A stretch of DNA of 62,447 nt, the filler included, from an uncultured Methanosarcinales archaeon (GTDB lineage: Archaea; Nanobdellota; Nanobdellia; Woesearchaeales; CAYSVS01): the NCBI GenBank assembly GCA_964434475.1. It is 3 parts of 3 records of this genome, joined end to end, with 100 filler letters (N's around TTAATTAATTAA, not from the genome) between each part and the next. Parts side by side here need not be neighbours in the genome. Positions count along the whole stretch, not along the records: positions 1 to 22,819 come from CAYSVS010000001.1; 2 more parts are not named here. One strand, 5' to 3'. A program made the position numbers and the translations under genes. Positions within the stretch are counted from its first letter, which is position 1. Each line of letters opens with the position of its first letter. Below are positions 1 to 30,622 of the stretch, piece by piece. The notes below the pieces were generated by a model, which did no database searches, was not told the DNA's origin, and saw only the letters and a program-made list of their open reading frames with translations.

Positions 1-47
1 TGCAAAATTAATAAATATAGAAATTGCAAGAATTTTCAAATCGTACA
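1..47. repeat. 47-bp sequence, exact inverted copy of 62394-62440
   Basis: TGCAAAATTAATAAATATAGAAATTGCAAGAATTTTCAAATCGTACA is the reverse complement of 62394-62440. Confidence 0.95.
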
Positions 48-88
48 GTTTTTCTTTAAAATCAAAATAATTATAAACTAAAACCATA

Positions 89-1243
89 ATGTCTTTGTCT
101 ATGCCGAAAAAAGAGGTTTATCAGGCTATAGCTACGCTGATGGGCACACTAATAGGTGCTGGTGTATTAGGCATACCTTTTGTTGTAGCTGAAGCAGGTT
201 TTCTGACAGGTGTTGCAATAATATTGCTTTTGGGTTTTGCTTTGATGCTTGTCAACTTTGCTGTTGGAGAGATTACTTTAAGAACCAATGGTAATCATCA
301 GTTAGCAGGATATGCTGGCATATATCTCGGAAAAAAAGGTAAATTCACGATGCTTATTGCTATGTTTCTTGTGAATTACGGTGCATTGATTGCTTATATT
401 GTCGGTGTAGGACAAAGCTTGTTTGCTATGACAGGCATATTAAATCCTCTTGTGTTTAGTTTTCTTTATTGGATTATAGTAAGTATGATTGTTTATATAG
501 GGCTAAAAGCTATCAAGGAATCTGAACTTGATTTTGGTCTGCTGATGCTTGCGATAATCTTGATTATCTGTTCTATTGCTTTATTATCTTCTCACTTTAG
601 TATTTCTAATCTCGGCAGTTTTGATATGACGAATGTATTCATTCCTTATGGTGTTGTATTATTTTCTTTTTTAGGAAGTACTGCAGTGCCTGAACTTAAA
701 GAGATACTTACTTCAGATAGAAAATATATGCAAAAAGCGATATTTTATGGGACCTTTATACCTATGGTGCTTTACATTATTTTTGCATTTGCTGTTGTCG
801 GTGTTTTAGGAAGTAGTACAACAAGCATAGCAACAATAGGTTTAGGAGAGTTGTATGGTAATTACATGGTCATCATAGCAAATATTTTTGCAGTCTTTGC
901 TATGACTACTAGTTTGTTAGCTTTAGGATTAGCGCTGAAAGAAGTGTATAATTATGATCTTCAGTTAGATAAAAATATTTCTTGGGTTTTGACAATGTTT
1001 ATACCTATGATTATAATATTTTTAGGTGTGAAAAATTTTATACATACTATTGATTTTGTTGGAAGTATAGCAGGAGGTATACAAGGTATATTGCTAATCC
1101 TTGTCTTTTGGAAAGCAGTCAAATATGGGGAAAGGGAACCAGAATATAAGATAGGAAAGCTTAAGTTTTTTGGATGGCTTTTGATGCTTGTTTTTGCGTT
1201 AGGAATTCTGTATCAGATTTTGCATAGGCTTGGATTGATGTAG
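89..1243 (+). CDS. Aromatic amino acid (TyrP/Mtr-like) / amino acid permease; true start may be 101
   Basis: About 11 hydrophobic segments; N-terminal GTLIGAGVLGIPF motif; PYGVVLFSF and TTSLLALG segments typical of the family. Confidence 0.85.
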   Translation: MSLSMPKKEVYQAIATLMGTLIGAGVLGIPFVVAEAGFLTGVAIILLLGFALMLVNFAVGEITLRTNGNHQLAGYAGIYLGKKGKFTMLIAMFLVNYGALIAYIVGVGQSLFAMTGILNPLVFSFLYWIIVSMIVYIGLKAIKESELDFGLLMLAIILIICSIALLSSHFSISNLGSFDMTNVFIPYGVVLFSFLGSTAVPELKEILTSDRKYMQKAIFYGTFIPMVLYIIFAFAVVGVLGSSTTSIATIGLGELYGNYMVIIANIFAVFAMTTSLLALGLALKEVYNYDLQLDKNISWVLTMFIPMIIIFLGVKNFIHTIDFVGSIAGGIQGILLILVFWKAVKYGEREPEYKIGKLKFFGWLLMLVFALGILYQILHRLGLM

Positions 1244-1302
1244 TATGGATAATTTTATAAATCATTTATGGATTCTAATGAATATCTTCCTTGGAAGATC
1301 AA

Positions 1303-1325
1303 GGGGGTGTAGTATAACCTGGCTA
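1303..1325 (+). repeat. Intron-less copy of the 5' end of the adjacent tRNA-Trp
   Basis: GGGGGTGTAGTATAACCTGGCTA matches spliced tRNA GGGGATGTAGTATAA|CCTGGCTA at 22/23 positions. Confidence 0.8.
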
Positions 1326-1413
1326 TATTTTAATTGGCATTATTATATTTTTAACTAAAGTTTACAATAAATTTTTAAACCTCCTATGTTTTTTTACTTT
1401 TAAATTATCATTT

Positions 1414-1567
1414 GGGGATGTAGTATAAACTGCTTCAACATATATGTTGGACAGGTACATCCTGGCTAGAATAGTCGGCTCCAGATGTTGGAGCGATGAG
1501 GCACTATGTGCTGATGAACTACAACAGGCTAAACCGTCGGATCTGGGTTCGAATCCCAGCATCCCCA
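1414..1567 (+). tRNA. trnW: tRNA-Trp(CCA) with two introns: D-loop intron 1429-1460 (15/16) and canonical 37/38 intron about 1485-1532
   Basis: Acceptor GGGGATG/CATCCCC-A; T arm CTGGG-TTCGAAT-CCCAG; anticodon CCA 1481-1483; intron 1 forms GTAT/GTAC helix with AAA and ATC bulges; intron 2 has TGTTG/CAACA stem and C/D-box-like GATGA/CTGA. Confidence 0.9.
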
Positions 1568-1663
1568 TCATTCCCTTATTCTTTTCATATTGTGATTTTA
1601 ATGTTTTATTTTAAATAATTTTTAAGCACTTTGTTTTTGTTGTCCTTATAAAGTAGTCATAAA

Positions 1664-1680
1664 TAGAAACATTTATATAT
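1664..1680 (+). promoter_or_regulatory. Canonical archaeal BRE-TATA promoter of the secA-like gene
   Basis: TAGAAACATTTATATAT about 40 nt upstream of ATG 1719; the same pattern precedes many housekeeping genes in the window. Confidence 0.7.
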
Positions 1681-1718
1681 TAGTTATGGTTTATAGTATC
1701 TACTATATAGTGATATAA

Positions 1719-4700
1719 ATGGTTTTGAAAGATTATTTGTCCAAAACAAAGAATATTCTTACAAGCGATGTGGGAGATTTAGCTAGTTCTATAAACAAAA
1801 AATTATCTGGAAATATGTTATATAGGTTAGCTTCTGGTGTGCCTTCTGTCGCTTACAGTGGATTGAAAAATAGCGCTAAGTTATGTACAAGGTCATCTGA
1901 ATATTTTGCTGGCAAAAATGGAGGAGAATCAGGATCTGAGATAGGCAAATATGTTTCGCTGCCGTCTGCTGCAGCATCTACTATACTTGGAGCAGCAGCT
2001 TTTGGTGCGCCTGGATTGATTATGGGTGCAATTTCAGCACCAGTTGTATCTGCAGGATCTGGTTATTGTTCCAGTTTGTTGGTTGAATCTCTTAAAGAGA
2101 CAAAAAACAAAGGTATTATTTCAGGTGCAAAGAAATTGGCTAAAGGAACTTTTGCTCCTATAAAATCTATACTTGATATTCCAGGAGATTCTTTCAATTA
2201 TCTTAATGGGATAGATATTTCTAAAGATAAGGAAACGTATGGAAACTTTACAGATGTTCTTAATTGTCTTTATTTTTTTATGGAAGACCTGAGAAATTAT
2301 GGAATTAATTCTGCTCCTGCTGTTAGAGAAGTTGTTTTTGAGAATGATGTCAATTTTGAAATGTATAATGATAAGCAGGTAAAATCCTTGGAAAAAATAG
2401 TCAAAAAAGTAAAAAAAGCAAAACAGAATATTCAGCAGGAATATGATGGTTGGAAAAAGGGTAATTTATCGGACGGTCTTTCTGGTTTTGAAAATTTTGC
2501 AAAGAATAAAACACAAGAATTTAAGGATAATGTAAGAGGCAACCTTTACTCTGTACTTGAAAAATATGTTGATGTTGAAGATAGTTTGTCTGATATGGAT
2601 AAATTATTTTTTGATGAATTAAATTCTGATGCTAGATATGATGTTATTAAGAAATTGTTCAAAAGACAATTTGATGATAACAGCAAAGAATACAAACAGT
2701 TTGTTAAGAAAAAAGATAATATTCTTGAACAAATACTTCCTGATGCTTATGCGCTTGTCCAGATGAGTGCTAAAGAAGCAATAGGTCTAGAGCATTATGA
2801 TGAACAGATTTTAGCAGGTATATCGCAAAATCAAGGTAAGATTATAAAGATGAGGACAGGGGAAGGCAAGACATTGACATCTGCTTTGCCTATATACCTT
2901 AATGCTTTAGCAGGCCAGTCACATTGGGTAACAAGGAACGAGTATGATTCTCAGAGGGATTTTGATAATTTTAGCAAATTATTTGATTATCTAGGATTAA
3001 GATCGTCTTTGAACAGAGAAGATATAGATAATAAAGAACGTAAAAGAATATTTGCAGACAGTGATGTTATATTCAGCGATATATCTTCTGTAGCTTTCAC
3101 TTATCTTAGGAATACTTTGGCTAAAGATATAACTGATATTGTGAATATGGATTTTAATTATGCTAATGTTGATGAGTTTGATCAAATAACCATAGACAAT
3201 GGTCTTACACCTTTTGTCATAGACAATGGAAATAAAAGCTTTATGTCTGATATGTCTGCTAAGATTGGAGAGATATGTCAATATTTATATGATACTGACA
3301 TGAAAAAAGGATATGCTAACACATTAGATTTTGATATAGTTGATTTTTTTGATAGGTATGGACCTCAAAATATGGTCGCTCAGACTTTGAGTTTGATAAA
3401 TCATGTTAAATTGAATCCTGAAAATTCTGAAATTGAAATGTATGTTGCAAATCTTTTAGGGCAATCAAAAAGAGATTTAAAATATTTTAATAAAGATGAT
3501 TATGCTCTAAATAAAAGCGTAAGGGAAGGCATAAACGAGCTTATACTTTTCTATTCTAAACACGCAGATGATCCTATAAGCAATCAGATAGTAAAACTGT
3601 TGGGCGATAATGGAACAGATTACAACCTAATAGATTTTGAGCATAATTTTAGTGAAACTGCTTTAGAAGATTTTATTGGTTTTTTCAATAAGAAAACTGA
3701 ATCAGAATTGTCTGTTAAAGATTACAATACTGACTTAAACCTGAAGAATGATCTTAATGTTTATTTTTTAGAAAACATTAAAGGTATTTTAGAAAATGTA
3801 TATAGCTTAGGAAAAAAAGACATACGATCTGTTATCGGAAATCTTGGTTTTGCCATGCAAGGTGGAGATTTTATCTCAGATAAAGCTAATAATTATGTTA
3901 TGTTGACTGAAATTGGTACAGATAAGATTCAGTCTTGTATAAATGAATTTTTCGAATCTGCTAACCTACCCAGCTTTATCCCTAAAGCCTATTTTTTACA
4001 GAAGATGGATCTTGCATTAAGAGTAAATGAACTGATGGAGGATACTTATGGAATAATAGAAGACAGTGAAGGGATTCCTAAGATAAGGATATATGATTCT
4101 GTTCAGGGAGAGTTTAAACACGACAACCAAAAATATTCAGAAGGTATGAACCAGGCTTTAGAAGCTAAAGTTTTTGGAAGAGTATTGAACAAAGAAACAG
4201 AACCTGCTACTAAGATTATGGTTCATTATTTGTTAGGATTATATGACAAGTTTTCAGGCCAGACAGGAACACCTTCAAATAAAGCGTCATATCAGATTTT
4301 TAATAAAGAAACTGTTGATGTTCCTACTCATTTTCCTGATATTAGAGTACATCATCCTGAGAAACTATATGCCACTAAAAATGAAAAGATAGATAATATA
4401 ATAGAGAAAGTCAAAGAGACTAATCTTGACAGTAATCCTTGTCTTATAATTTGTGAATCCGATAAATTATCTTTAGAAATTTACAATAGAATAAAAGATA
4501 TGGATGGTGTTGATAAGGATAAATTAAATCTATTTACTGACTTTAAAGCTCAAAATTCAGACGATCCTTATGGATATAAGAAGAATATTGTGAAAAAAGC
4601 AGGTATGGCTAAAGAGATTACCGTAGCAACAAATATGGGTGGAAGGGCTATAGATATACCTGTTGACAATAGTGCTTATGCTGACTCTGTAATAGACAAT

Positions 4701-6995
4701 ATAGTTAGACAGTCTATTGGCAGCTATAATGAAGGAACTTCTGTTTTTTTGAGAACAAGCGATTCTGTATTGGTTGATGAGAATAGGTGTACTGTAAAGA
4801 AAAAAGGCTTGGTGCAATACGACAATCTTATTTTTAATAAGTCTTCACAGAATTTAGAGACCAGTTTAACAGACGAAAATCTTGATTTTTTTGCGTCTTT
4901 TTTTAATGATCATGAAGAAAAAGGCAGAGGTTATATTATCGCAAAAAGATCAGGTCAGAAATTAGATGTTGAAACTCTGGATAAAGAGGAGCACAATTTT
5001 TTATTGGATAATATTTTATCAGCGATAAACTTATCCTGTAATAAGAAGGGTCTTGCTGTTATAGACTCTTATTCTGAGATTGATAACAGCGGAAGGATTG
5101 TAATATATGAAAAAGGACAGCCTTTAGAGTTTGTTGCGAATTCTAAAAAAGATATGAAAAAAGCAGAGAAGAAAATCAAGAGATTGGTAGGAAAGGAGAA
5201 TGTTATATCTTACTACAATCCTTATCTTACTAATGGATATGTTTATGCTTATCCTGATAGATGTAATGTGAATCTTCCTGTAATAGGTTCTAAAGACTGT
5301 ACTGATGTTTTAAATAGTATAAGCGGTAAGATGTTAAATGAAAACCTTGAATATTTCGATATATTGGAGTCATATAAGATATCCAATGATCTGAAGACAT
5401 CAGATTCAAGCACTTTTAGTAAAGACATAACACCTGGTTTGACAGTTATACATGGAGAAAAACAAAAATTTGAGCGTGCTGAACAGCAAGCTATCGGAAG
5501 GACTGGAAGACAAGGGCAACAGGGAAGCACATATTATTTTTCTTCTTTGGATGATTCTTTGTTGGATTTTATAAATAAGGACTCTTCTCAGAAAATATTA
5601 TCATGTCAAAAAGCTTTATCAGGTCATACTTATGGAAAAGAGTTGAACAAGGTTTTCTTTGGTCAGAGAAAAGGAGACAATTTTAATTATTTGGCTAATT
5701 TTAGAGAACAGATGGAGTCCAAGAATCTTGCAAATCTTATATCTGAAGTAAAGCTTGAAAATTATCTTGAAGGCGATAGGAAAAGGGTTTTTGAAATAAG
5801 AAATGATATACTTAGAAGTGATGATAAGGAATTAAGCGAAAGGATATCGGAAAATGCTGATCATTTTATAGATAGATTATATGGTTCTTTTGGAATATCT
5901 CATGATTCTAAACATAAGGATCTGTTGGATTTGGATGATTATCTTCAGAGTTATGGGGTTGATATAGATTTTAGTGATGCTCAAAGTATGAGGGATAATT
6001 TGAGATCTGCATTAGTGCCTTCTGAACAATCCAACCTGAAGCAGAGGGTGTTGAATATTATAGATTTTTATTGGAGAAATCATATGGGGAATATGAATCA
6101 AATAAAGCATCAAATATCTTCAGCAAAAGACTATGGGAAAACAAGTGCTCCTGTTTCAGGGTTGTTGTTTGATAGGATTGAAGATAAAGTCCTTGAGGAT
6201 TATTTCAAGATTGATCTGCCTAAATCTTATTTGGATAATTATGATAAAGCCTTGGCTAAAAAAGGACTTATCATGAATCACAAAAATATGGAAGAAAGAA
6301 ACATTTTAGAGAATATAGTTATGAACAGGATAAGAAGAAGATTTGCTAAAGATGATGCTTCTTTAGTGCAGGTAATGGTCGATAAGAAAAGTTTTGATAG
6401 AGAAGAGTATATGAGAGCTGATAAGGATTTTATAGGTGATGTTCTGGCTAATATGAACATATTTGATAAATCTAAATATTTTATCAATAAACTATCTTTG
6501 GGTATGTTGTTTCCTAGTTCAGGATTAGATGCTTTTGCTGATACTTATTATAATAAGAGGTTAAAGTTTATGAGGCTTCCTTTGAATAAAGAATCTGAAA
6601 AGGATGAATTGTTTGAGCAGATAGAAGCTGCTTATTATCCTAAAAAGATAGTAAGCGTCGATGAAATTATGTGTAGAGATAAAAAGTTTGCCGATAGTTT
6701 GTCTTTAAGAGATAAATTTAGCTTATTTGGTAATGGTGAAAGATCAAATAAGATAAGACAGGATTTTGTTGACAAAAGTCTGAGAAATAACAAGTATGTT
6801 CGGGAAGTGTTTAATATTGAAGACTGTGCTGATCATGTGCTTGAAACAAAAGGCATGAGATCTGAGCTTGAATTGTTTATGAAGTTGTTTGATAAAAATT
6901 CAGGTAAATTCACAGATGATGATCTGGATAAGTTCAAGATACTTCAGCCAGATGATATTGAACAGATAAAAAATGATCTTGTTTTTATCGGTTAG
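1719..6995 (+). CDS. secA: Divergent, enlarged SecA-family translocase ATPase (1758 aa)
   Basis: HYDEQ, MRTGEGKT (Walker A), VDEFDQITID (Walker B), YSEGMNQALEAK, SGQTGT, VATNMGGRAIDI, QAIGRTGRQG-YYFSSLDD, scaffold helix and IDFYWRNHM all in SecA order. Confidence 0.92.
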   Translation: MVLKDYLSKTKNILTSDVGDLASSINKKLSGNMLYRLASGVPSVAYSGLKNSAKLCTRSSEYFAGKNGGESGSEIGKYVSLPSAAASTILGAAAFGAPGLIMGAISAPVVSAGSGYCSSLLVESLKETKNKGIISGAKKLAKGTFAPIKSILDIPGDSFNYLNGIDISKDKETYGNFTDVLNCLYFFMEDLRNYGINSAPAVREVVFENDVNFEMYNDKQVKSLEKIVKKVKKAKQNIQQEYDGWKKGNLSDGLSGFENFAKNKTQEFKDNVRGNLYSVLEKYVDVEDSLSDMDKLFFDELNSDARYDVIKKLFKRQFDDNSKEYKQFVKKKDNILEQILPDAYALVQMSAKEAIGLEHYDEQILAGISQNQGKIIKMRTGEGKTLTSALPIYLNALAGQSHWVTRNEYDSQRDFDNFSKLFDYLGLRSSLNREDIDNKERKRIFADSDVIFSDISSVAFTYLRNTLAKDITDIVNMDFNYANVDEFDQITIDNGLTPFVIDNGNKSFMSDMSAKIGEICQYLYDTDMKKGYANTLDFDIVDFFDRYGPQNMVAQTLSLINHVKLNPENSEIEMYVANLLGQSKRDLKYFNKDDYALNKSVREGINELILFYSKHADDPISNQIVKLLGDNGTDYNLIDFEHNFSETALEDFIGFFNKKTESELSVKDYNTDLNLKNDLNVYFLENIKGILENVYSLGKKDIRSVIGNLGFAMQGGDFISDKANNYVMLTEIGTDKIQSCINEFFESANLPSFIPKAYFLQKMDLALRVNELMEDTYGIIEDSEGIPKIRIYDSVQGEFKHDNQKYSEGMNQALEAKVFGRVLNKETEPATKIMVHYLLGLYDKFSGQTGTPSNKASYQIFNKETVDVPTHFPDIRVHHPEKLYATKNEKIDNIIEKVKETNLDSNPCLIICESDKLSLEIYNRIKDMDGVDKDKLNLFTDFKAQNSDDPYGYKKNIVKKAGMAKEITVATNMGGRAIDIPVDNSAYADSVIDNIVRQSIGSYNEGTSVFLRTSDSVLVDENRCTVKKKGLVQYDNLIFNKSSQNLETSLTDENLDFFASFFNDHEEKGRGYIIAKRSGQKLDVETLDKEEHNFLLDNILSAINLSCNKKGLAVIDSYSEIDNSGRIVIYEKGQPLEFVANSKKDMKKAEKKIKRLVGKENVISYYNPYLTNGYVYAYPDRCNVNLPVIGSKDCTDVLNSISGKMLNENLEYFDILESYKISNDLKTSDSSTFSKDITPGLTVIHGEKQKFERAEQQAIGRTGRQGQQGSTYYFSSLDDSLLDFINKDSSQKILSCQKALSGHTYGKELNKVFFGQRKGDNFNYLANFREQMESKNLANLISEVKLENYLEGDRKRVFEIRNDILRSDDKELSERISENADHFIDRLYGSFGISHDSKHKDLLDLDDYLQSYGVDIDFSDAQSMRDNLRSALVPSEQSNLKQRVLNIIDFYWRNHMGNMNQIKHQISSAKDYGKTSAPVSGLLFDRIEDKVLEDYFKIDLPKSYLDNYDKALAKKGLIMNHKNMEERNILENIVMNRIRRRFAKDDASLVQVMVDKKSFDREEYMRADKDFIGDVLANMNIFDKSKYFINKLSLGMLFPSSGLDAFADTYYNKRLKFMRLPLNKESEKDELFEQIEAAYYPKKIVSVDEIMCRDKKFADSLSLRDKFSLFGNGERSNKIRQDFVDKSLRNNKYVREVFNIEDCADHVLETKGMRSELELFMKLFDKNSGKFTDDDLDKFKILQPDDIEQIKNDLVFIG

Positions 6996-7047
6996 ATGAG
7001 AAACAAGCACAACATATTCGTACATTGTCACTGTTAAGTAAGAAATT

Positions 7048-7063
7048 CAGTAACATTTAAATA
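7048..7063 (+). promoter_or_regulatory. Variant promoter CAGTAACATTTAAATA
   Basis: TATA box TTTAAATA preceded by CAGT rather than GAAA; same spacing at 9372, 12157, 37151. Confidence 0.7.
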
Positions 7064-7106
7064 TGTCTAACATTTGACAGATACAATACTATAATATTCA
7101 CGGAGG

Positions 7107-8165
7107 ATGATTTTAATGAATCAAATTGATGGCTTAGTAAGGGATACGCTAGATAGTGTTTTGGATGATGATAAGATTGCAGAATATCTTTCCAATAAAC
7201 TGCTTACACAGATAAATAAGACGCAAAATTCAGATAATGGTATAAAAAGCATACGTGATGGAACAAAGACTATCAAAAGATTTTATGATTCATTGAATGA
7301 AGATAAAAACAGCATATTGAATGATCCTAGAACTTTAAAGAACATATTAGGTGATAATGATTATTCTCCTTTAATACAGGAAAATGGCAGTAAACAAGAA
7401 TTTGCTGCAGGAGTTAAAGACTTCTTATTGAAATATATCAAATTTGCAAATATATCTTCTTCATTGGACGAAACTTTGGATTCTAAATATGAACAGATCG
7501 GTGCTTTGGATAAGGTTAATGAAAAGCAACCTATGAAAGCAGGCTGGCTTCTGTTTAAGAATTTTGGTCTTAAAGGTTTGACGAATAAAGAAGCTTATCT
7601 TAGAACAATAGCTGATGTGATGGAAACCAAAAATCTATCTTTAGAACAAGCAAAAGATGAGATTCCTAATTTAGTTTCTCAGATAGAAAAAAACAGTAGG
7701 AAATTAGATAACAAGGAGTATACTGCAGGAACACAATCTTATAGGATGAGAGAGATAGGAGAATGGTTTGATGCAAACAAAGTTGGTCTTGCAGCAGGAG
7801 TTGCAGCGCTTGCAATTGCAGCAGGAGGTATGTTTGCTATGCCTAAGTTATTTTACTCAGATAATGCCCATGATGCAAAAGCTTATGTCATAGAAGCTGA
7901 TGCTAAATTAAAAGAAGCTAATAATCTTCTTGAAAGTGCGGATGCAATGATCGCTGAGCAGAATAAGAAGCTAGAAACTGTTAAAAAAGAAGCTTCAAAG
8001 GTTGATCTTGCTGACAAATACCTGTCGCAATTTACTGGTATGCCTTATGCACCTGCTCATGATGAACTAGGAGAAGTAAGAACTAAGTTTGGTTTTAATT
8101 CTTCTGAATATAATGCAGCTGCAGAAGCTTTTGAAGATGCCTTTGGAATAAAACCTAATTTTTAA
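7107..8165 (+). CDS. Hypothetical membrane protein with one Gly/Ala-rich TM helix followed by coiled coil
   Basis: 352-aa ORF, SD GGAGG; VGLAAGVAALAIAAGGMFAM segment; heptad-like EADAKLKEANNLLESADAM. Confidence 0.8.
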   Translation: MILMNQIDGLVRDTLDSVLDDDKIAEYLSNKLLTQINKTQNSDNGIKSIRDGTKTIKRFYDSLNEDKNSILNDPRTLKNILGDNDYSPLIQENGSKQEFAAGVKDFLLKYIKFANISSSLDETLDSKYEQIGALDKVNEKQPMKAGWLLFKNFGLKGLTNKEAYLRTIADVMETKNLSLEQAKDEIPNLVSQIEKNSRKLDNKEYTAGTQSYRMREIGEWFDANKVGLAAGVAALAIAAGGMFAMPKLFYSDNAHDAKAYVIEADAKLKEANNLLESADAMIAEQNKKLETVKKEASKVDLADKYLSQFTGMPYAPAHDELGEVRTKFGFNSSEYNAAAEAFEDAFGIKPNF

Positions 8166-8176
8166 GGTGATCTGAT

Positions 8177-9361
8177 TTGTCTGGAAATAAAGAGGACAAT
8201 TTTTTATTTGATCCATTAGAGGAGAAAGTAACTAAGGAAGCTAAAAAGAAACGGTATCAAAACATAAAAAATGTTCTTAAATATTCTGCAGTAAGTTTTT
8301 TAGTAGGTGCTTCTCTTTGTTTCGGCTACCGTAATATGGATAATATCAAGTCTTTTTTGTCTGGTTCTGGAAAAGATGTTTTTGAGATAAAGAACAAGCA
8401 GCTGAAAAAAGTACGTAAACTTGAGCAGCTTTCTGAAAAAGATTTTAAGAAATATATTTCTCTCCATGAAAGATCCATAGATACTACTTTTTTCAGAGAT
8501 AATGATTTTATTGCAAAAGATAATAAATTAAGGGTTGTAGTAAATGCCGGCCATTTAGGAGGAAGATTTAGAGACGGAAGAAAATTTAATGAGGGTGCGG
8601 TTTATAAAGGTCTGGGGGAGACTGATTTAACTCCTGTTGCTGCGAAAATAATATGCCAGGAACTTGAAAAAAATTCTTCTTTCAAGCCTAAACTTATGAA
8701 ATCGCATGATTATAACACTCTTTTGAACTATGCTCCCTGGATATTAAATAGATTTAAGGTGACCTGGGGAGAGTCTTTGTATCCTGATGAGTATGATATA
8801 AACAGTCCTTATTTGTCTGATTTCTTAGATTGTATCGACGGAAATACGCGAAAAGCGAAATATAAGTCTGTAAGATCAGGAATTATATTTTCGCTTGGAA
8901 AAAAGGAAAGTAAAGGTCGAACTATTCAGAATAGTGCAGGCCATATATTTATTGAAACGCATTATGACTCTATGAATGGACGAAGATTCAAGGTTTATGT
9001 TCCAAGGGAATATGAGTGTGGAGATTATGGTTATGCAAGTTTCAAGAACAGGCAGCTCGAACTTTCAAAGAAACTGGCTTTGTATATTACAGAGGAAGCA
9101 TATAATCAAGGTATAGAAAGCGCTAAGCCAGGAGTTATAGGAAGGGATGATTCTATACAGATGATATTCAATCCTTTGCCTGTGTCTGTGTTGGTGGAAT
9201 ACGACAATATAGATGAAAGAAATTCAACAAATGCTGTATATATGACTAAAGTTGCTAAAGCAGTTAATATGGCTTTAGATAGGTTTGCCAGAGAAGAGTA
9301 TGATCAATTGATCAGGTACCCTGTGTCTGATAGCGGCTTGTTGGCAAGTAATCACTATTAA
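8177..9361 (+). CDS. Membrane-anchored N-acetylmuramoyl-L-alanine amidase (Amidase_3 family)
   Basis: TTG start with GGTGA SD; N-terminal TM; VVVNAGHLGG (His), LGETDL (Glu), IFIETHYDS (His), PVSVLVEYDNI (catalytic Glu). Confidence 0.85.
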   Translation: MSGNKEDNFLFDPLEEKVTKEAKKKRYQNIKNVLKYSAVSFLVGASLCFGYRNMDNIKSFLSGSGKDVFEIKNKQLKKVRKLEQLSEKDFKKYISLHERSIDTTFFRDNDFIAKDNKLRVVVNAGHLGGRFRDGRKFNEGAVYKGLGETDLTPVAAKIICQELEKNSSFKPKLMKSHDYNTLLNYAPWILNRFKVTWGESLYPDEYDINSPYLSDFLDCIDGNTRKAKYKSVRSGIIFSLGKKESKGRTIQNSAGHIFIETHYDSMNGRRFKVYVPREYECGDYGYASFKNRQLELSKKLALYITEEAYNQGIESAKPGVIGRDDSIQMIFNPLPVSVLVEYDNIDERNSTNAVYMTKVAKAVNMALDRFAREEYDQLIRYPVSDSGLLASNHY

Positions 9362-9371
9362 ATGACTAAAT

Positions 9372-9387
9372 CAGTTATATTTAAATA
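9372..9387 (+). promoter_or_regulatory. Variant promoter CAGTTATATTTAAATA
   Basis: About 20 nt upstream of ATG 9407; matches shared motif. Confidence 0.7.
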
Positions 9388-9406
9388 AGTCTAGAATTTA
9401 ACAAAG

Positions 9407-12061
9407 ATGGTAAAGATGGAATATTCAGCAGTAACAAAGACAGGAAACAGCAGCGCAGCAATAGACTTAGAATCTAGATTAAAGAAAGATACTGAGGAAA
9501 TAATTATTTTCAATACAACTTCTGAAAAACAAAAAAAATCTGAGAAAAAAAGAATTTCTGCAAAACTTGTACACAATCCTGAGAAAAGGGAGTTTTCTTT
9601 GCTAAATGATTGTCTGACAGAACATTATAATCAGAGATTTAAACCTTCTATAGTATGGAGTTTTACGAGTGGAAAAGGGGGTGTTGGAAAGACAACTATT
9701 GCAGGAGTTACTGCAAGAAGGCTTGCATTGGATAAAAATAATTATAAGGTTCTTCTTGTAGATGCAGATCATGGTGGACAGAATAATATACATCATCTCT
9801 TTGGAAAACAGAATAATGATAATAAAGCTATATTGAATATGGTTGAGAATGAAAGATATATGCTAAATAAGAAAAATTTAGTCAAGAGTGCTGTTTCAGA
9901 GTATCTTGATTCAGCTATTGATGTTCTATGGTCTTGTGGTCTTAAAGGTTTTAAAGAAATTTATAAGTCTTTTAATAAAGACGGAATCACTCTTGATGTA
10001 TCTATAGGTAATAAGGCAGGTGTTGATTTTTCTGATGATTACTCTGTTAGGAACGTTATAGGAAATATTATTTACGATAAGATGCCTGATTATTCAAAAG
10101 AGATAACTGGTGCAGTGATGGAATATGTAATCTATGATTTCAAAAGCAGGTCATCTGTTATAGAGAATTTTAAAGGTAAATCCAACTATAAGAAAATACT
10201 TAGCAGTATAGTTAAAAATATCCCCAAAGAACCTTTGATAAAGTCTATCTTAAGATCTGATGTTGTCTCTAAATTTATCGAAGATGTTAATGAAGAACTT
10301 GAGATTTCTTATTTTGGCCAGGATAATGTCCTTAAACAAATATGTGATAACTCAATAGTCAATGCAAAAGTATCTGAAGAAGAAAAAAAATGTCTTGGTC
10401 TTTTCAGTTCACAAAAAAATTATAATCTATCTTATGTAGATTTAGCAGGAAACGTGAAGATAGATGAAAAGAATTCCATGGGTTTAAGAAAAATTTCAAA
10501 AGTATTGAGCTATGCTTCCTCTAAATTAGGATACGACTTTGTAATAATAGATAATGGTGCAGGATCTAATAAACTTAATGATCTAAGTTCATTTTCTGAT
10601 GCCGCCATAGTCGTCGTAAATGATTCTGTGCCGTCAAAGGATGGTGCTGTAGCTGCATTGGAATCCATCTCTTTAAAAAATTATGAACTTACTATGCAGC
10701 AAGCTTTGGATGGTGGTTTTAATGCAAAACATGTCTTATACGGGATGCTTAATTCGTTGAACAAGAAAGACGAAGGAGAGGATCTTTGCGATCACGTTTT
10801 AAAAAAGATGAAGTCTTTGAAATCTGATCCTTATTTGTGCAGCATGGATTATTTAGGAAGTATAGAAGAATTGACCAAATCAAAAATAAATAAAATAACA
10901 CATAAGAACATACTTAAATCAATGACAAAAGTTTTGTCAAAAAGAGGTATGAAGGAAGATGATATTGTGCAGATATATAGGGGTTTAGGATATACTCCTT
11001 CAACTATAAAACACTCTATAGATAAATCTTTGTTAGGATATTATTTGGATGAAGTTTATACTAGTCTAAAGAAACAAGGTTTCAAAACATTAGGTATATT
11101 GACCTATCTTGCTTATGAGATGGATTTCAACCATAAAGATATTTTGAAGATAGATGATCTGAAAGAGATATCGCAAAAAGATCCTGAGGCTTTTAATGAT
11201 ATAATGGGAAAACTTTCAAAATTTTTCTATGTGCAGGATGAATCTGTAAACTATAAGACTATCATGAAAGAACTTGAAGAGCAAGGTTATCTGTTTCATG
11301 GAGATGATGTGATTAATGATAATTCCGATCTTCTAGCGAAAAGGCTTGAACTGGAATATTCTTCGATATCTCACTTTATGGGTGCTGTCAGAAAAGAAAA
11401 AAAGTCCATAGACGTGGCTTCAGATATAAAAAACATGATATCTTCCTGCGATATGTTAAGGGCTGGTGCAAAGTTAAATAGGGTTGCTGATTTTGAGTCT
11501 AAAGATAATTTAAGGAATTCTAGACAGAAAGAATTAGCTAAGAAATATCAAGAGCATTTAAATTATTATGGCATCTCAGAAAATCATCATAAATCTTTGC
11601 TTAATTATTTTTGCGGTGCAAAGATGTATTTTAATGAATTAACTTCCCATTTTGTAAAGGATAATCCTGATATATGTGATGCTTATGATGATGATATTTT
11701 CAGGACAAATAGGATCAAAATTATTGAAAAAATATCCTATAGAAATAATCTTCATACTTTTATGATATTGAACAGGAAAGATCCTAAAGAAAAAAAGTCT
11801 TGGCGAGATTATCGCGAGGAGTTAAACACTCTTGTGAAGAATAGATTGGGATTTGAGCCTAATGGGTTAGATTATGTTGTAGAGGATAAGGATACTTTCA
11901 ATAAAGCTAATTCATCCAATTGGTCAGAGATATTTTTAAAGAATGCAAAAGAAGGTCGATTGTCTAAGTCCATAGAGAATTGCGTAACAACTATACTTCC
12001 AAGTGCGAAAAAGAAATGGGCTTGGTTGAAATTTAGATATTTTGACAGGGTATGTTATTAA
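9407..12061 (+). CDS. MinD/FlhG/ParA-family P-loop ATPase with large insertions (884 aa)
   Basis: SGKGGVGKTT deviant Walker A; VLLVDAD; YDFVIIDNGAG; SDAAIVVV; late MILNR; basic-aromatic C-terminus. Confidence 0.88.
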   Translation: MVKMEYSAVTKTGNSSAAIDLESRLKKDTEEIIIFNTTSEKQKKSEKKRISAKLVHNPEKREFSLLNDCLTEHYNQRFKPSIVWSFTSGKGGVGKTTIAGVTARRLALDKNNYKVLLVDADHGGQNNIHHLFGKQNNDNKAILNMVENERYMLNKKNLVKSAVSEYLDSAIDVLWSCGLKGFKEIYKSFNKDGITLDVSIGNKAGVDFSDDYSVRNVIGNIIYDKMPDYSKEITGAVMEYVIYDFKSRSSVIENFKGKSNYKKILSSIVKNIPKEPLIKSILRSDVVSKFIEDVNEELEISYFGQDNVLKQICDNSIVNAKVSEEEKKCLGLFSSQKNYNLSYVDLAGNVKIDEKNSMGLRKISKVLSYASSKLGYDFVIIDNGAGSNKLNDLSSFSDAAIVVVNDSVPSKDGAVAALESISLKNYELTMQQALDGGFNAKHVLYGMLNSLNKKDEGEDLCDHVLKKMKSLKSDPYLCSMDYLGSIEELTKSKINKITHKNILKSMTKVLSKRGMKEDDIVQIYRGLGYTPSTIKHSIDKSLLGYYLDEVYTSLKKQGFKTLGILTYLAYEMDFNHKDILKIDDLKEISQKDPEAFNDIMGKLSKFFYVQDESVNYKTIMKELEEQGYLFHGDDVINDNSDLLAKRLELEYSSISHFMGAVRKEKKSIDVASDIKNMISSCDMLRAGAKLNRVADFESKDNLRNSRQKELAKKYQEHLNYYGISENHHKSLLNYFCGAKMYFNELTSHFVKDNPDICDAYDDDIFRTNRIKIIEKISYRNNLHTFMILNRKDPKEKKSWRDYREELNTLVKNRLGFEPNGLDYVVEDKDTFNKANSSNWSEIFLKNAKEGRLSKSIENCVTTILPSAKKKWAWLKFRYFDRVCY

Positions 12062-12104
12062 GACAATATGTGTTTTAAATCATATAAATTATTTTAAATA
12101 GCAA

Positions 12105-12120
12105 TGACAAATCTTTGTCA
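12105..12120. promoter_or_regulatory. Palindromic putative operator TGACAAA-TC-TTTGTCA
   Basis: Perfect 7-bp inverted repeat upstream of the variant promoter; CACTATTTAGT direct repeats nearby (about 12124 and 12200). Confidence 0.5.
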
Positions 12121-12156
12121 AAACACTATTTAGTTACTATTCATAAATGAAAAAAT

Positions 12157-12172
12157 CAGTAAGCTTTAAATA
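12157..12172 (+). promoter_or_regulatory. Variant promoter CAGTAAGCTTTAAATA
   Basis: Matches shared motif, about 105 nt upstream of ATG 12279. Confidence 0.65.
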
Positions 12173-12278
12173 TATTTGTCACTTTACAGGGTAGAAAAGC
12201 ACTATTTAGTGATGATTATTCATAATTCAAAGAGGGGAAACACGATAAATAGAAATAACACACGGAGGATGTTAAAAA

Positions 12279-14552
12279 ATGGTATGGGGTAATCCAATTT
12301 CAAAAGCTAACGAAGAAGTATTCAATCCTAATATAAGAACTGCGGGAGCAACCGCTGGAATGGCGACTCTTGGATATGGTCTTATGACTGTAGCTAAGAT
12401 GATGTCTCCAACAGATGCAAGTGCTGCAGAGAATAAAAAACTTATAGATATAGAAAAAACAGGAAAATATGACGCTCTAGTGGCTCAGACAAAAGCTTAT
12501 CTTAAAGGAGTAGGAGACACTAAATCACTTTCTCATATAGAGACTGGTTTTGACGGTTATAGACAAGATGATAATAAATCAACAGATTACGAATTTACAG
12601 ATTTCAGTATAGACGGCAACAATGTTTCATTTTATGATACTGAGATGCTTGGAAATGTGCCTGTTTCTTCTTTAGAGGTAAAAGCTAATAAAGAAATAGG
12701 AAGAAAATACATGGAATTCCTTAAAAGGGTTGTTGAGAAATCAAATGATCATAAATTAAGCAACTTTGAGCCTGATTATCATCTAGCAGCTAATGAGATG
12801 ACTCAAAAGGTGAGGGATCTTTATTCTGAAATTAAATCTCAACAAAGCGGAAGCAGAAATGTTAATGCTTTAGATGGAGAATATAAACAAACATTTGAGA
12901 TGATGAAAAAGTATGCTGGCATGGAAGGGTGGAGCGTAAAAGATATACAAAAACATTATGGTTTGAAACAAGACGGTTTAGCAGGGACTAAGACACTGAA
13001 CAGATTGAATCCTGACGCTAAAAAAGTATACAGTAATCTTAAAGCACAAAAACCTTCTGTAAAAAAATCAAGTATGAAGTCAGTCAAAATATCAAGAAAT
13101 CCTGCTTCAAATCTTGAAGCTAAGGTTGAAAGCAGCGGTTTTGATGAACAATTGACTTTTGATGAACAATTGACAGAAGACGTAGGTTATACTTACAGAA
13201 CAATAAAAAGCCAGAAAAGCGGAAGCAAGAATGTAGAATCTTTGCCTCATGACTCTACAGTTGAATCTACTTATAATAAATTGGTTGACTTGGCTGGATT
13301 CAATGGAAAAGATACAAAAGAGATCCAAAAAGAGTTAGGATTGAAATCAGACGGTTTAGCAGGAGTAAAGACATTGAATAGATTAGTTAAGATGGCTAAG
13401 GCTAATTCTAACTACTCAAGTAATGATAATACTTTGGAGAAAACAATGTCTAATGCAGATGTTGAAAATATCGCTCAATCTGCGATGAGTTCAACAAGCC
13501 CTTTTATCGAGGATGTTAGGGATCTGTACGATGCTTTGGAAAAACAGCCAAAAGGAAGCAGACATATAGATGCTTTGGCAAAGAGTGTAAGCACAGAACA
13601 AGGAGCAAAATATCTTGCAACTTTTTGGAAGATGACAGATTTTGCTCAAGAAGGAGGATTACAGTTCAATAAGCAGGAGGATAATCCTAAATTATCATAT
13701 GAAAACCTTCAGAAAGCTTTAGGTGCTCATGTTGACGGTAAACCTGGATTGGGAACATTGAATAAGTTAAATCCATTGGCTAAGCCTGTTTATACAAGCA
13801 TGCCTAAGTCTGAGTTCAAAGAATCATATGTTTCTAATGAAGCTCAGAACGCTCAAGATAAGGTTATCAAACAGCTAGAGAAGGATCTTGGAACAAAGAT
13901 CGCTGGTGAGGATAATAATGTTCAGAAAACAGACACACAGAAAGCAGCTGAAAAGGCTATGGATAAGATAGATGAAGCAAAAGAAAACAGAAGAGATGCT
14001 TATATGGACAGAGAATTACAAAATACTAGTCTAGATAGCGCTGTCTCAAGATTAAATGATCTTAATGTTGAAGGATTAAAGCCTAGTGTTGATGAAACCG
14101 GAAACTTCACTTTCCAAAGGAAAAGAGGAAGCATTGAAGGTTCAATTACAACAAGCGGAGATAAATATGTAGTATCTATGCAGGGCGGAATCAAGGATGG
14201 CGAATTCAACGGTAAATACAGTTCATTGGATAATGCTATGAATTCAATCGAAGAAGCTGTACTTAACAGAACATCAGCAAGTGCTCTTGATAGTATGGGC
14301 GGTGCTGGAAAAGCTGTTGGAGTTGTCGGCGGAATCGCTTTGCTGGCTGCTTTACTTGGCGGCGGCAGTGGCGGCAGTTCAGGCGGAGGCTCAAGTGCAA
14401 CATCTGCACATGATTCATCCAACACTTTTGAGAACGACATTGCAGGATTCTCTATGAAAAACCAAAGCAATCCTGAAGTTGATCAGTTCGATAAAGACAG
14501 CAATGATGTTAACAAGAATATCAATTATTTCCTAAATATGAGGAATGCATAA
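12279..14552 (+). CDS. Exported/membrane protein with three peptidoglycan-binding (PG_binding_1-like) repeats and a Gly-rich hydrophobic C-terminal segment
   Basis: IQKHYGLKQDGLAGTKTLNRL, IQKELGLKSDGLAGVKTLNRL, LQKALGAHVDGKPGLGTLNKL; N-terminal hydrophobic stretch; VGVVGGIALLAALLGGGSGG. Confidence 0.75.
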   Translation: MVWGNPISKANEEVFNPNIRTAGATAGMATLGYGLMTVAKMMSPTDASAAENKKLIDIEKTGKYDALVAQTKAYLKGVGDTKSLSHIETGFDGYRQDDNKSTDYEFTDFSIDGNNVSFYDTEMLGNVPVSSLEVKANKEIGRKYMEFLKRVVEKSNDHKLSNFEPDYHLAANEMTQKVRDLYSEIKSQQSGSRNVNALDGEYKQTFEMMKKYAGMEGWSVKDIQKHYGLKQDGLAGTKTLNRLNPDAKKVYSNLKAQKPSVKKSSMKSVKISRNPASNLEAKVESSGFDEQLTFDEQLTEDVGYTYRTIKSQKSGSKNVESLPHDSTVESTYNKLVDLAGFNGKDTKEIQKELGLKSDGLAGVKTLNRLVKMAKANSNYSSNDNTLEKTMSNADVENIAQSAMSSTSPFIEDVRDLYDALEKQPKGSRHIDALAKSVSTEQGAKYLATFWKMTDFAQEGGLQFNKQEDNPKLSYENLQKALGAHVDGKPGLGTLNKLNPLAKPVYTSMPKSEFKESYVSNEAQNAQDKVIKQLEKDLGTKIAGEDNNVQKTDTQKAAEKAMDKIDEAKENRRDAYMDRELQNTSLDSAVSRLNDLNVEGLKPSVDETGNFTFQRKRGSIEGSITTSGDKYVVSMQGGIKDGEFNGKYSSLDNAMNSIEEAVLNRTSASALDSMGGAGKAVGVVGGIALLAALLGGGSGGSSGGGSSATSAHDSSNTFENDIAGFSMKNQSNPEVDQFDKDSNDVNKNINYFLNMRNA
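13139..13174 (+). repeat. 18-bp tandem duplication (FDEQLT x2)
   Basis: TTTTGATGAACAATTGAC twice in tandem, in frame. Confidence 0.85.
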
Positions 14553-14575
14553 AAAACGTAGAGGAGGAAAACAAA

Positions 14576-22819: not shown

Positions 22820-22919
22820 NNNNNNNNNNNNNNNNNNNNNNNNNNNNNNNNNNNNNNNNNNNNTTAATTAATTAANNNNNNNNNNNNNNNNNNNNNNNNN
22901 NNNNNNNNNNNNNNNNNNN
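22820..22919. other. Assembly gap with TTAATTAATTAA linker
   Basis: 44 N + 12-mer with stops in all frames + 44 N. Confidence 0.97.
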
Positions 22920-30522: not shown

Positions 30523-30622
30523 NNNNNNNNNNNNNNNNNNNNNNNNNNNNNNNNNNNNNNNNNNNNTTAATTAATTAANNNNNNNNNNNNNNNNNNNNNN
30601 NNNNNNNNNNNNNNNNNNNNNN
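30523..30622. other. Assembly gap with TTAATTAATTAA linker
   Basis: 44 N + 12-mer + 44 N. Confidence 0.97.

Follow-up and report, generated by a model that had tools for sequence, protein, structure and literature searches.

Does a SecA-type motor exist in an archaeon and, if so, what has become of it there? In the parts of three reviews (2018, 2022 and 2026; PMC6098224, PMC7613921 and PMC13673990) that deal with archaeal export, archaea are described as lacking a SecA homologue, and the motor of their post-translational export is given as unknown. The question is raised by gene P0001, which lies near the start of a 62,447-nucleotide stretch of DNA (the window, meaning the whole stretch that was analysed) from an uncultured archaeon of the GTDB order Woesearchaeales (assembly GCA_964434475.1, here genome G000), and which an initial annotation had read as a full-architecture SecA of about twice the normal size. 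The analysis shows that P0001 is real and intact, and that it belongs to an archaeon with a small genome. Judged from its sequence and predicted structure, it is a member of the SecA family that keeps the ATP motor together with the general arrangement of SecA domains, has lost the tip of the two-helix finger, and is far removed in evolution from all other SecAs. A full-text search of the literature, supplements excluded, gave no report of a SecA in archaea; public genome annotations may already carry the name.

A SecA-family gene in an archaeal genome

P0001 is a single open reading frame (ORF) of 1758 amino acids (aa) that starts with ATG. At the base composition of the genome (32% GC), the probability that 1758 codons stay open is about 4e-60. 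The window consists of three contig pieces (C1 1–22819, C2 1–7603 and the whole of C10) with N spacers between them, each with 12 bases inside; gene neighbourhoods are not readable across these joins, and the P0001 gene lies wholly in the first piece (window 1–22819, equal to contig C1 1–22819). The host genome is a metagenome bin of 1.50 Mb in 148 contigs, which is 97% complete and 0.85% contaminated.

SecA is otherwise bacterial, and the gene lies only 1.7 kb from the end of its contig in a fragmented bin, as might be expected of a bacterial gene that had been binned with the archaeon by contamination or on a chimeric contig. However, contig C1 is an N-free sequence of 87,274 bases that elsewhere carries archaeal genes, including those of translation and glycosylation (STT3, the oligosaccharyl transferase; aIF5B, L37ae, eRF1, aIF5A, prefoldin beta and HerA). 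Moreover, contigs produced by a second, independent assembler, from the one public DNA run that holds the stretch and is probably the source sample, cover window positions 26–2570, 2650–8916 and 8909–16237 with zero differences, at a depth that stays even at about 10. The first contig joins, at the same depth, an upstream permease gene that the sister species also carry (48% identity), a tRNA-like gene and the opening 850 bases of the P0001 ORF. The composition is also native: the tetranucleotide distance of the gene from the genome mean is 0.167, compared with an average of 0.178 (sd 0.060), and 41% of 201 genome windows are at least as far; the island in which the gene lies is similarly placed (29% of 56 genome windows are as far or further), and GC content is 31.7% against 32.5% for the genome. 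Further, no bacterial SecA exceeds about 37% identity to P0001. Because the contig is long and archaeal, its junctions are bridged by a second assembler and its composition is native, contamination or a chimeric contig is a very improbable source of P0001.

The genome contains a single SecA_DEAD match and a single SecY, which is of the archaeal type (E 2e-114 to 3mp7, 7e-107 to 1rhz and 1e-66 to Sec61 alpha, compared with 1e-8 to bacterial SecY). Public sequencing runs that hold the stretch comprise one DNA run, with no RNA run listed. A scan for bacterial promoters and terminators gave results that at best equal those from shuffled sequence. An archaeal TATA-like TTTATATA, spotted by eye only, precedes the ATG by about 40 nt.

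The ATP motor and the domain arrangement of SecA

All four Pfam domains of SecA match P0001 above their cut-offs: SecA_DEAD (PF07517; aa 308–855, 177.9 bits, E 3.4e-52), P-loop_SecA (PF21090; 70.1 bits, E 2.7e-19), SecA_PP_bind (PF01043; aa 716–815, 25.7 bits against a cut-off of 23.5, E 1.9e-5) and SecA_SW (PF07516; aa 1332–1468, 32.1 bits against 26.7, E 1.5e-7). E. coli SecA itself aligns at E 4e-62 in three matching stretches separated by two gaps. A residue map was derived from a local-pair alignment against an E. coli-like SecA, hereafter the reference (Table 1).

The motor motifs are retained, namely MRTGEGKT (aa 378–385), VDEFD, GQTGT (III), TNMGGRAIDI (V) and QAIGRTGRQG (VI). Two SecA alignments agree that every invariant column is kept, including the Q motif, GxGK, DExD, the glycine of motif III, the GR of motif V and the QxxGRxxRQG of motif VI. 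The initial annotation had found all helicase motifs recognisable and had placed Walker A at aa 378, and both statements hold, as does its recognition of the scaffold helix, which the SecA_SW match covers. Elsewhere the protein has changed considerably. IDEARTPLII of SecA has become IDNGLTPFVI; the PPXD stem motif TGRxMxGRRxSDGLHQAIEAKE is altered at most of its conserved positions; and the scaffold and wing (aa 1323–1417) align to reference residues 625–719 at 15% identity.

The largest change to a functional element is in the two-helix finger. Its first helix (aa 1441–1464, reference 764–787) is conserved, as had been stated, and its second helix corresponds to aa 1465–1507 (reference 796–838). 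Between them, an 8-residue gap (reference 788–795) falls where SecA has GIxLRxYAQKDP, and two independent alignments agree on it. The description of a full architecture is thus accurate for the domains and the helical hairpin, and fails at the fingertip, where a 3-residue turn is left.

The remaining parts of P0001 have no counterpart in SecA. As the initial annotation had described, these are a long N-terminal extension with a Gly/Ala-rich hydrophobic string at aa 84–107, which could be a membrane tether; insertions in the preprotein-binding region (aa 532–714) and between motifs V and VI (aa 1002–1238); and an unrelated C-terminus that aligns to nothing. The SEC-C zinc tail has no PF02810 match, and there are zero CxC motifs across the whole of P0001; the SEC-C motif is not universal among SecAs. 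For the extensions and insertions, Pfam gives no match up to E 10; they contain no internal repeats and resemble neither the neighbouring proteins nor the island proteins of sister species.

Structure prediction gives a consistent picture. An AlphaFold model of aa 300–1499 (73-row alignment, mean predicted local distance difference test (pLDDT) 69.3, predicted template modelling score 0.72) is confident in NBD1, PPXD, NBD2, the scaffold, the wing and the hairpin, and poor in both insertions; the PPXD region has a pLDDT of 61–88 and is included in the superpositions on SecA. With this model, all of the best 35 Foldseek rows listed are SecA or SecA2, with E-values from 4e-33, and template modelling (TM) scores normalised by target are 0.80 to 6itc_A, a substrate-engaged SecA–SecY complex, and 0.76 to 3dl8_A. 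VIA-align superposes 663 residues on 5eul_A, also a SecA–SecY complex, with Z 41.4 and a root-mean-square deviation of 3.0 Å. Its entries 1 to 28 are all SecA or SecA2 (Z 23.5–41.4), followed by other superfamily 2 (SF2) helicases that align over the motor only, at Z 17.6 or below. A second model, of aa 1230–1758 (mean pLDDT 66.8), supports the scaffold, wing and hairpin (pLDDT 84–97 across aa 1329–1499), and SecA accounts for 14 of its 14 Foldseek matches at E <= 0.001; its last 260 residues are helical, modelled at low confidence and without a significant structural match. Both models place helices at aa 1440–1465 and 1469–1496, connected by the 3-residue turn (pLDDT 88–97). The core of P0001 (aa 300–1499) is thus predicted to fold like a whole SecA, and the PPXD, scaffold and finger, whose absence would have spoken against the identification, are all present in the models, with the fingertip absent. 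Together with the archaeal contig and the four Pfam domains, the fold bears out the presence of a SecA-family gene in an archaeon.

Divergence and ancestry of P0001

P0001 has no close relative. A word-indexed search through 5.8 billion proteins gave 24 matches at E <= 1e-5, of which the best non-self match is an ordinary bacterial SecA (E 8.6e-46, 31% identity over 13% of the query). An exhaustive HMMER search with aa 300–1480 against 1.84 billion representatives gave 8192 matches at E <= 0.001; the best non-self score is 212.7 bits, the next 149 fall evenly to 180 bits at 27–37% identity, and none of the matches listed is above about 37%. In 185,579 species genomes, the best 80 named relatives come from bacteria of many phyla, with near-equal E-values from 1e-37 to 6e-32. 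Collections of phages and plasmids yield only ordinary SecA, at 30–34% identity and in chromosome-like records, and the matching family phrog_32805 is a plain SecA family.

In the trees, which include no named SecA2 sequence, the terminal branch of P0001 is 9.1 substitutions per site long when other archaeal copies are included and 10 when they are left out, compared with a bacterial median of 0.29–0.30, a difference of about 30-fold. Its attachment point is unsupported and falls on an unresolved backbone with or without those copies. The flat E-values across phyla and the unsupported position rule out naming a donor. P0001 is probably bacterial in ancestry, and neither its donor nor the date of its transfer appears recoverable.

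The divergence also affects positions that SecAs conserve. At 158 positions that are at least 85% conserved among 123 SecA relatives, P0001 agrees at 93 and differs at 65 (41%). All NCBIfam SecA and SecA2 models match it far under their cut-offs, at about a quarter to a third. In particular, the three best general SecA models reach 297–319 bits against cut-offs of 800–862 (PRK09200, 319.2 against 862; PRK12904, 303.4 against 814), and a fourth, PRK12901, reaches 215 bits. The four SecA2 models score 270.9 against 930 (TIGR03714), 257.3 against 1085 (TIGR04397), 182.6 against 725 (TIGR04221) and 172 against 1100 (NF012136); all four lie below the three best general models, and PRK12901 lies below two of the SecA2 models. 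The initial suggestion that P0001 is SecA2-like is not supported by these scores; moreover, the genome has neither a SecA1 nor a second SecY, and the trees give P0001 no affinity to any SecA group.

Such divergence could mean that P0001 is a decaying or functionless foreign gene whose frame has not yet been interrupted. It is a singleton in all databases searched, sister species are without it, many conserved positions are lost, and the insertions and extensions are all low-confidence folds. However, all 1758 codons remain open, and every invariant catalytic residue is kept despite change at 41% of the SecA-conserved positions; moreover, its fully native composition argues against a recent arrival. 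Decay is therefore an unlikely explanation.

SecA-like genes elsewhere in the lineage

Among 41 relatives including G000, only G000 passes the SecA_DEAD cut-off. In a phylum sample of 401 genomes, seven match including G000; one of them (G246) was rejected as SecA-like, being a Hef-type helicase, and SecA-like genes are thus found in six genomes (G000, G104, G129, G187, G319 and G350), where all tallies that count G350 rest on that unpublished genome. A search with the whole of P0001 recovers the same six, the match being confined to the motor.

The other copies (L031, L033, L034 and L035 in G129, G187, G319 and G104, respectively, and L032 in G350) encode 966–1070 aa, and sit on contigs with archaeal genes, beside housekeeping genes and outside this type of island. 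For example, the G104 copy adjoins split RpoA, S12, S7 and diphthamide synthase genes and also signal peptidase II (LspA), and the G187 and G319 copies adjoin ArgRS, MetRS and Lit in shared synteny. The latter two, from two species of another genus, are 76% identical with a ratio of nonsynonymous to synonymous substitution rates of 0.18, and are under purifying selection.

Like P0001, these copies combine archaeal contigs with extreme branches, equally long. They match it more weakly than bacterial SecAs do, at no more than 83 bits against about 170–210 bits. The motif ID(N/D)GLTP is common to P0001 and G104, and QAIGRTGRQG to P0001, G187 and G319; the fingertip is absent in G129 as in P0001, canonical in G104, and retains LRMY in G187 and G319. 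Unlike P0001, they are of normal size and without the hydrophobic N-terminal extension. In the best tree, all five archaeal rows are placed on a single side, that of P0001, at a non-significant support of 73.6 (Shimodaira–Hasegawa-like approximate likelihood ratio test), and long-branch attraction is likely.

This distribution bears on the proposal that P0001 is the missing archaeal SecA, working on the host's own SecYE-beta in general post-translational export, with extensions that only add membrane attachment. In its favour, the predicted domain arrangement is that of a complete SecA and the motor motifs are intact; the closest TM scores are to SecY-bound SecA, and the genome carries bacterial-type Lgt and LspA, enzymes whose substrates in bacteria are exported proteins. 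The fingertip has been studied in E. coli. According to the results in PMC3518217 that concern it, its conserved tyrosine contributes to high-affinity SecYEG binding, and the fingertip mutant Y794C still translocates; loss of the tip alone therefore does not exclude work on SecY. On the other side, P0001 lacks all eight fingertip residues and differs at 65 of the 158 conserved positions, including the PPXD stem motif; its only SecY is archaeal; and neither the two sister species nor 395 of the 400 other sampled genomes have a SecA-like gene, so there is no general requirement for one. A general archaeal export motor is accordingly as doubtful as a decaying gene. Since close relatives do without P0001, the channel is of the archaeal type, and the SecY-contacting tip and many SecA-specific positions are gone, P0001 is probably no longer a general motor on the SecY channel.

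A variable island with shared Gly/Ala-rich segments

P0001 is the first of five genes (P0001, o352, o394, ParA884 and PG757) that form an island at window positions 1719–14552 (Table 1). The sister species G001 has the same permease and tRNA-like gene and, about 11 kb further on, the same PKD and putative S-layer genes; the genes in between (1075, 326, 801 and 270 aa; L020:2687–10315) are dissimilar to the five island genes. Across the three species of the genus (G000; G001, L020; G002, L021), the island holds unrelated genes. The positional counterparts of P0001 in the sister species (1075 and 1061 aa) show no similarity to it even with phmmer --max, and the 801-aa protein of G001 has a Walker A motif, GKGSSGKT, as in ParA proteins; the sister-species islands may be positional counterparts that have diverged beyond recognition. 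By comparison, SecY is 83–85% identical between G000 and both sisters, and between G000 and G001 the permease is 48% identical, the putative S-layer protein 56%, and the PKD protein 35–41% in its two longest aligned segments and 31% in a third.

P0001, o352 and PG757 have exactly one hydrophobic segment each, and all three segments are rich in Gly and Ala. Using a 19-residue segment with a mean Kyte–Doolittle hydropathy of at least 1.6 and at least 10 Gly and Ala residues, 5 of 1268 proteins qualify in G000 (non-overlapping ORFs of at least 100 aa), and three of the five are these island proteins. The island is enriched in 16 of 16 threshold pairs, with hypergeometric P values from 4e-3 to 1e-7 that are optimistic, as the criterion was set after the segments had been seen.

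Table 1. Features of P0001 and the neighbouring genes of the island. Coordinates are window positions.
Feature	Coordinates	Strand	Remarks
SecA-like ORF P0001	1719..6995	+	single ATG-started frame, 1758 aa; Pfam and E. coli SecA matches
N-terminal extension, aa 1–309	1719..2645	+	no relative found
Gly/Ala-rich hydrophobic segment, aa 84–107, possible membrane anchor	1968..2039	+	hydropathy and alignment map
NBD1, aa 310–531 (reference 35–254), with Walker A (378–385) and DEFD	2646..3311	+	pLDDT 84–97
Insertion 1, aa 532–714, between NBD1 and PPXD	3312..3860	+	orphan, low-confidence fold
PPXD and first part of NBD2 through motif V, aa 715–1001 (reference 260–528)	3861..4721	+	
Insertion 2, aa 1002–1238, between motifs V and VI	4722..5432	+	orphan, poorly modelled
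Part of NBD2 with motif VI QAIGRTGRQG, aa 1239–1311 (reference 552–624)	5433..5651	+	
Scaffold helix and wing, aa 1323–1439	5685..6035	+	Pfam, alignment, model
Two-helix hairpin, aa 1440–1497	6036..6209	+	3-residue turn, conserved fingertip absent
C-terminal extension, aa 1508–1758	6240..6992	+	helical at low confidence, no zinc motif, no relative found
o352	7107..8165	+	no family; Gly/Ala-rich hydrophobic segment, aa 226–244
o394	8177..9361	+	no family; weakly hydrophobic segment, aa 33–51
ParA884	9407..12061	+	MinD/ParA-type P-loop, aa 85–325, and orphan 555-aa C-terminal part
PG757	12279..14552	+	three repeats with PG_binding_1 domain; Gly/Ala-rich hydrophobic segment, aa 679–697

PG757 also has weak endolysin-like PHROG matches, and the word-indexed search found no relatives of PG757 or of the C-terminal part of ParA884. 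Three motifs of o394, picked out by eye (NAGHLGG, ETHYDS and VLVEYDN) and lying after its weakly hydrophobic segment, resemble those of Amidase_3 cell-wall amidases; Pfam at E <= 10 and a sequence search of the PDB gave no support for this tentative assignment.

The island setting is one reason to consider that P0001 has a task unrelated to protein export and uses only its SF2 motor; it might, for instance, be a helicase on nucleic acids, serve as a remodelling ATPase or belong to a conflict system. Its gene is placed in a variable island, with a tRNA-like gene and a ParA-like ATPase gene nearby; SecA-specific positions are relaxed and motor motifs retained; and motif VI has drifted to QAIGRTGRQG, which we take to resemble the general DEAD-box form. 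However, a plain helicase could dispense with the PPXD, scaffold, wing and hairpin, and these are recognisable by sequence and confidently folded. P0001 matches no PADLOC defence family, its neighbours give only one weak ParA match, and the hydrophobic segment that it has in common with neighbours points to the membrane. A role outside export is thus a minority possibility, though one to be taken seriously.

Several side features accompany the island. The tRNA-like gene (window 1303–1570, + strand) has an acceptor and T arm at 1414–1420 and 1541–1569 with about 100 extra bases inside, and a second copy of its 5′ part at about 1303–1328. It is missed by default ARAGORN, reported as tRNA-Ala(GGC) with a 173-base intron when introns are allowed, and matched weakly by an Rfam tRNA-clan model (20.5 bits). 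Both sister species conserve it at 83–84%, and it immediately precedes the variable island. A search for mobile-element boundaries gave no repeat of its 3′ end within the window and no convincing pair of direct repeats around the island. The window spacers occupy positions 22820–22919 and 30523–30622, and an additional 100-N gap (42857–42956) lies inside C10, within a 1767-aa ORF (37672–42975).

Outside the window, the contig of P0001 also encodes a 5092-aa ORF (C1 52107–67385, +), a 1754-aa ORF with bacterial Ig-like domains (C1 68157–73421, +) and the bacterial-type Lgt (C1 85939–86697; PF01790, E 2.6e-56). LspA (PF01252, E 2e-34) is on contig C15 (L156:8748–9230, −) together with HisRS, a Bud32/RIO-type kinase and aIF1A; the 2022 review describes an archaeal signal peptidase II as not yet identified (PMC7613921).

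A proposed role at the membrane

Taken together, the evidence leads us to favour, tentatively and with slightly less than even confidence, a P0001 that is a membrane-attached, SecA-derived motor acting for the proteins of its own cluster. By the proposed mechanism, it would be an ATP-driven clamp on the membrane that handles the polypeptides of a few adjacent gene products. The candidate clients are o352 and the putative peptidoglycan-binding protein PG757, and the Gly/Ala-rich segment that they share with P0001 may anchor all three in the membrane, provide an interface for packing or act in recognition. The substrate specialisation proposed in the initial annotation is in this respect plausible, given the segment type found in two neighbours and the species-specific island, even though its likening of P0001 to SecA2 is not supported.

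Several observations weigh against a cluster-specific membrane motor. SecA_DEAD matches are absent from both same-genus genomes (G001 and G002, 99% and 93% complete), and the corresponding island proteins of these species have no such segment. The segment of P0001 is only a borderline membrane helix (19-residue Kyte–Doolittle maximum of 1.72) and contains prolines, and the Gly/Ala criterion is post hoc, as noted above. The neighbours are orphans to which no function is assignable, and selection on P0001 is not measurable because this particular gene has no relative. Further, translocation by Y794C SecA leaves work on SecY open to a motor with a damaged tip, and the best TM-score matches, being SecY-bound SecAs, fit a channel-bound state equally.

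A more ambitious version of the cluster-specific motor would make the island a lineage-specific machine for export or surface assembly, built around a SecA-derived motor that is independent of a SecY-inserting fingertip. Such a motor would be anchored by its own Gly/Ala-zipper segment and would recognise, or pack against, the like segment in o352 and PG757; these clients would then be moved to the surface of an archaeon that itself lacks peptidoglycan, where they would attach to a bacterial partner or attack it. This version is speculative and rather unlikely. If it is true, Archaea would gain their first export route of the SecA type, and SecA a new form of coupling to the membrane.

Several consequences depend less on the precise role. 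SecA-family genes do sit on archaeal contigs in this lineage, which contrasts with the statements of the reviews, and P0001 is the most extreme case. If P0001 exports proteins, it offers a testable entry into the adaptation of a bacterial motor to the membrane of an archaeon; otherwise, it would exemplify the fate of a SecA once freed from SecYEG. In addition, the presence of P0001, Lgt and LspA in one genome adds to the evidence of bacterial-type envelope machinery in small archaea.

Comparison with known SecA systems

Housekeeping SecA (E. coli, B. subtilis and T. maritima; 2fsf, 1m6n, 3din and 5eul) shares with P0001 the four Pfam domains in the same order and all ATPase motifs, and the predicted fold superposes on it over 600–716 residues with Z of 23.5–41.4. 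One cyanobacterial SecA in the alignment is also much longer where P0001 has insertion 2, with motif V at 474 and motif VI at 642. In contrast to housekeeping SecA, P0001 has an archaeal host and twice the length; a 309-aa N-terminal extension with a hydrophobic segment replaces the SecA N-terminus; the LRxYAQKD tip is deleted; the SEC-C zinc tail is absent; and the C-terminus, of 250 aa, is unrelated.

The SecA2 proteins of Gram-positive bacteria and mycobacteria (6t4h, 4uaq) resemble P0001 in being diverged, in having no zinc tail and in their few suspected substrates, and they match its predicted fold with Z of 36.2 (4uaq) and 32.0 (6t4h). Unlike accessory SecA2 systems, G000 has no SecA1 and no second SecY, and the neighbours of P0001 match no family; nor do the trees, in which no named SecA2 is represented, group P0001 with any bacterial clade.

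The closest parallels in size are giant SecAs of 1321–2221 aa in the representative library (P0112, 2221 aa; P0148, 2147 aa; P0133, P0076, P0106 and P0028). They share with P0001 large insertions between NBD1 and PPXD and within NBD2, and some have N-terminal extensions of 250–450 aa. Unlike P0001, they score 345–415 bits with SecA_DEAD and 99–208 bits with SecA_SW (178 and 32 bits for P0001), and three of the six keep the SEC-C motif; they are 33–35% identical to P0001, and none aligns to its insertions. Large size alone is therefore not new, given these giant SecAs and their insertions at the same sites. The novelty of P0001 lies in the combination of an archaeal host, a hydrophobic N-terminal extension, a lost fingertip, extreme divergence and a type of segment found also in neighbouring proteins.

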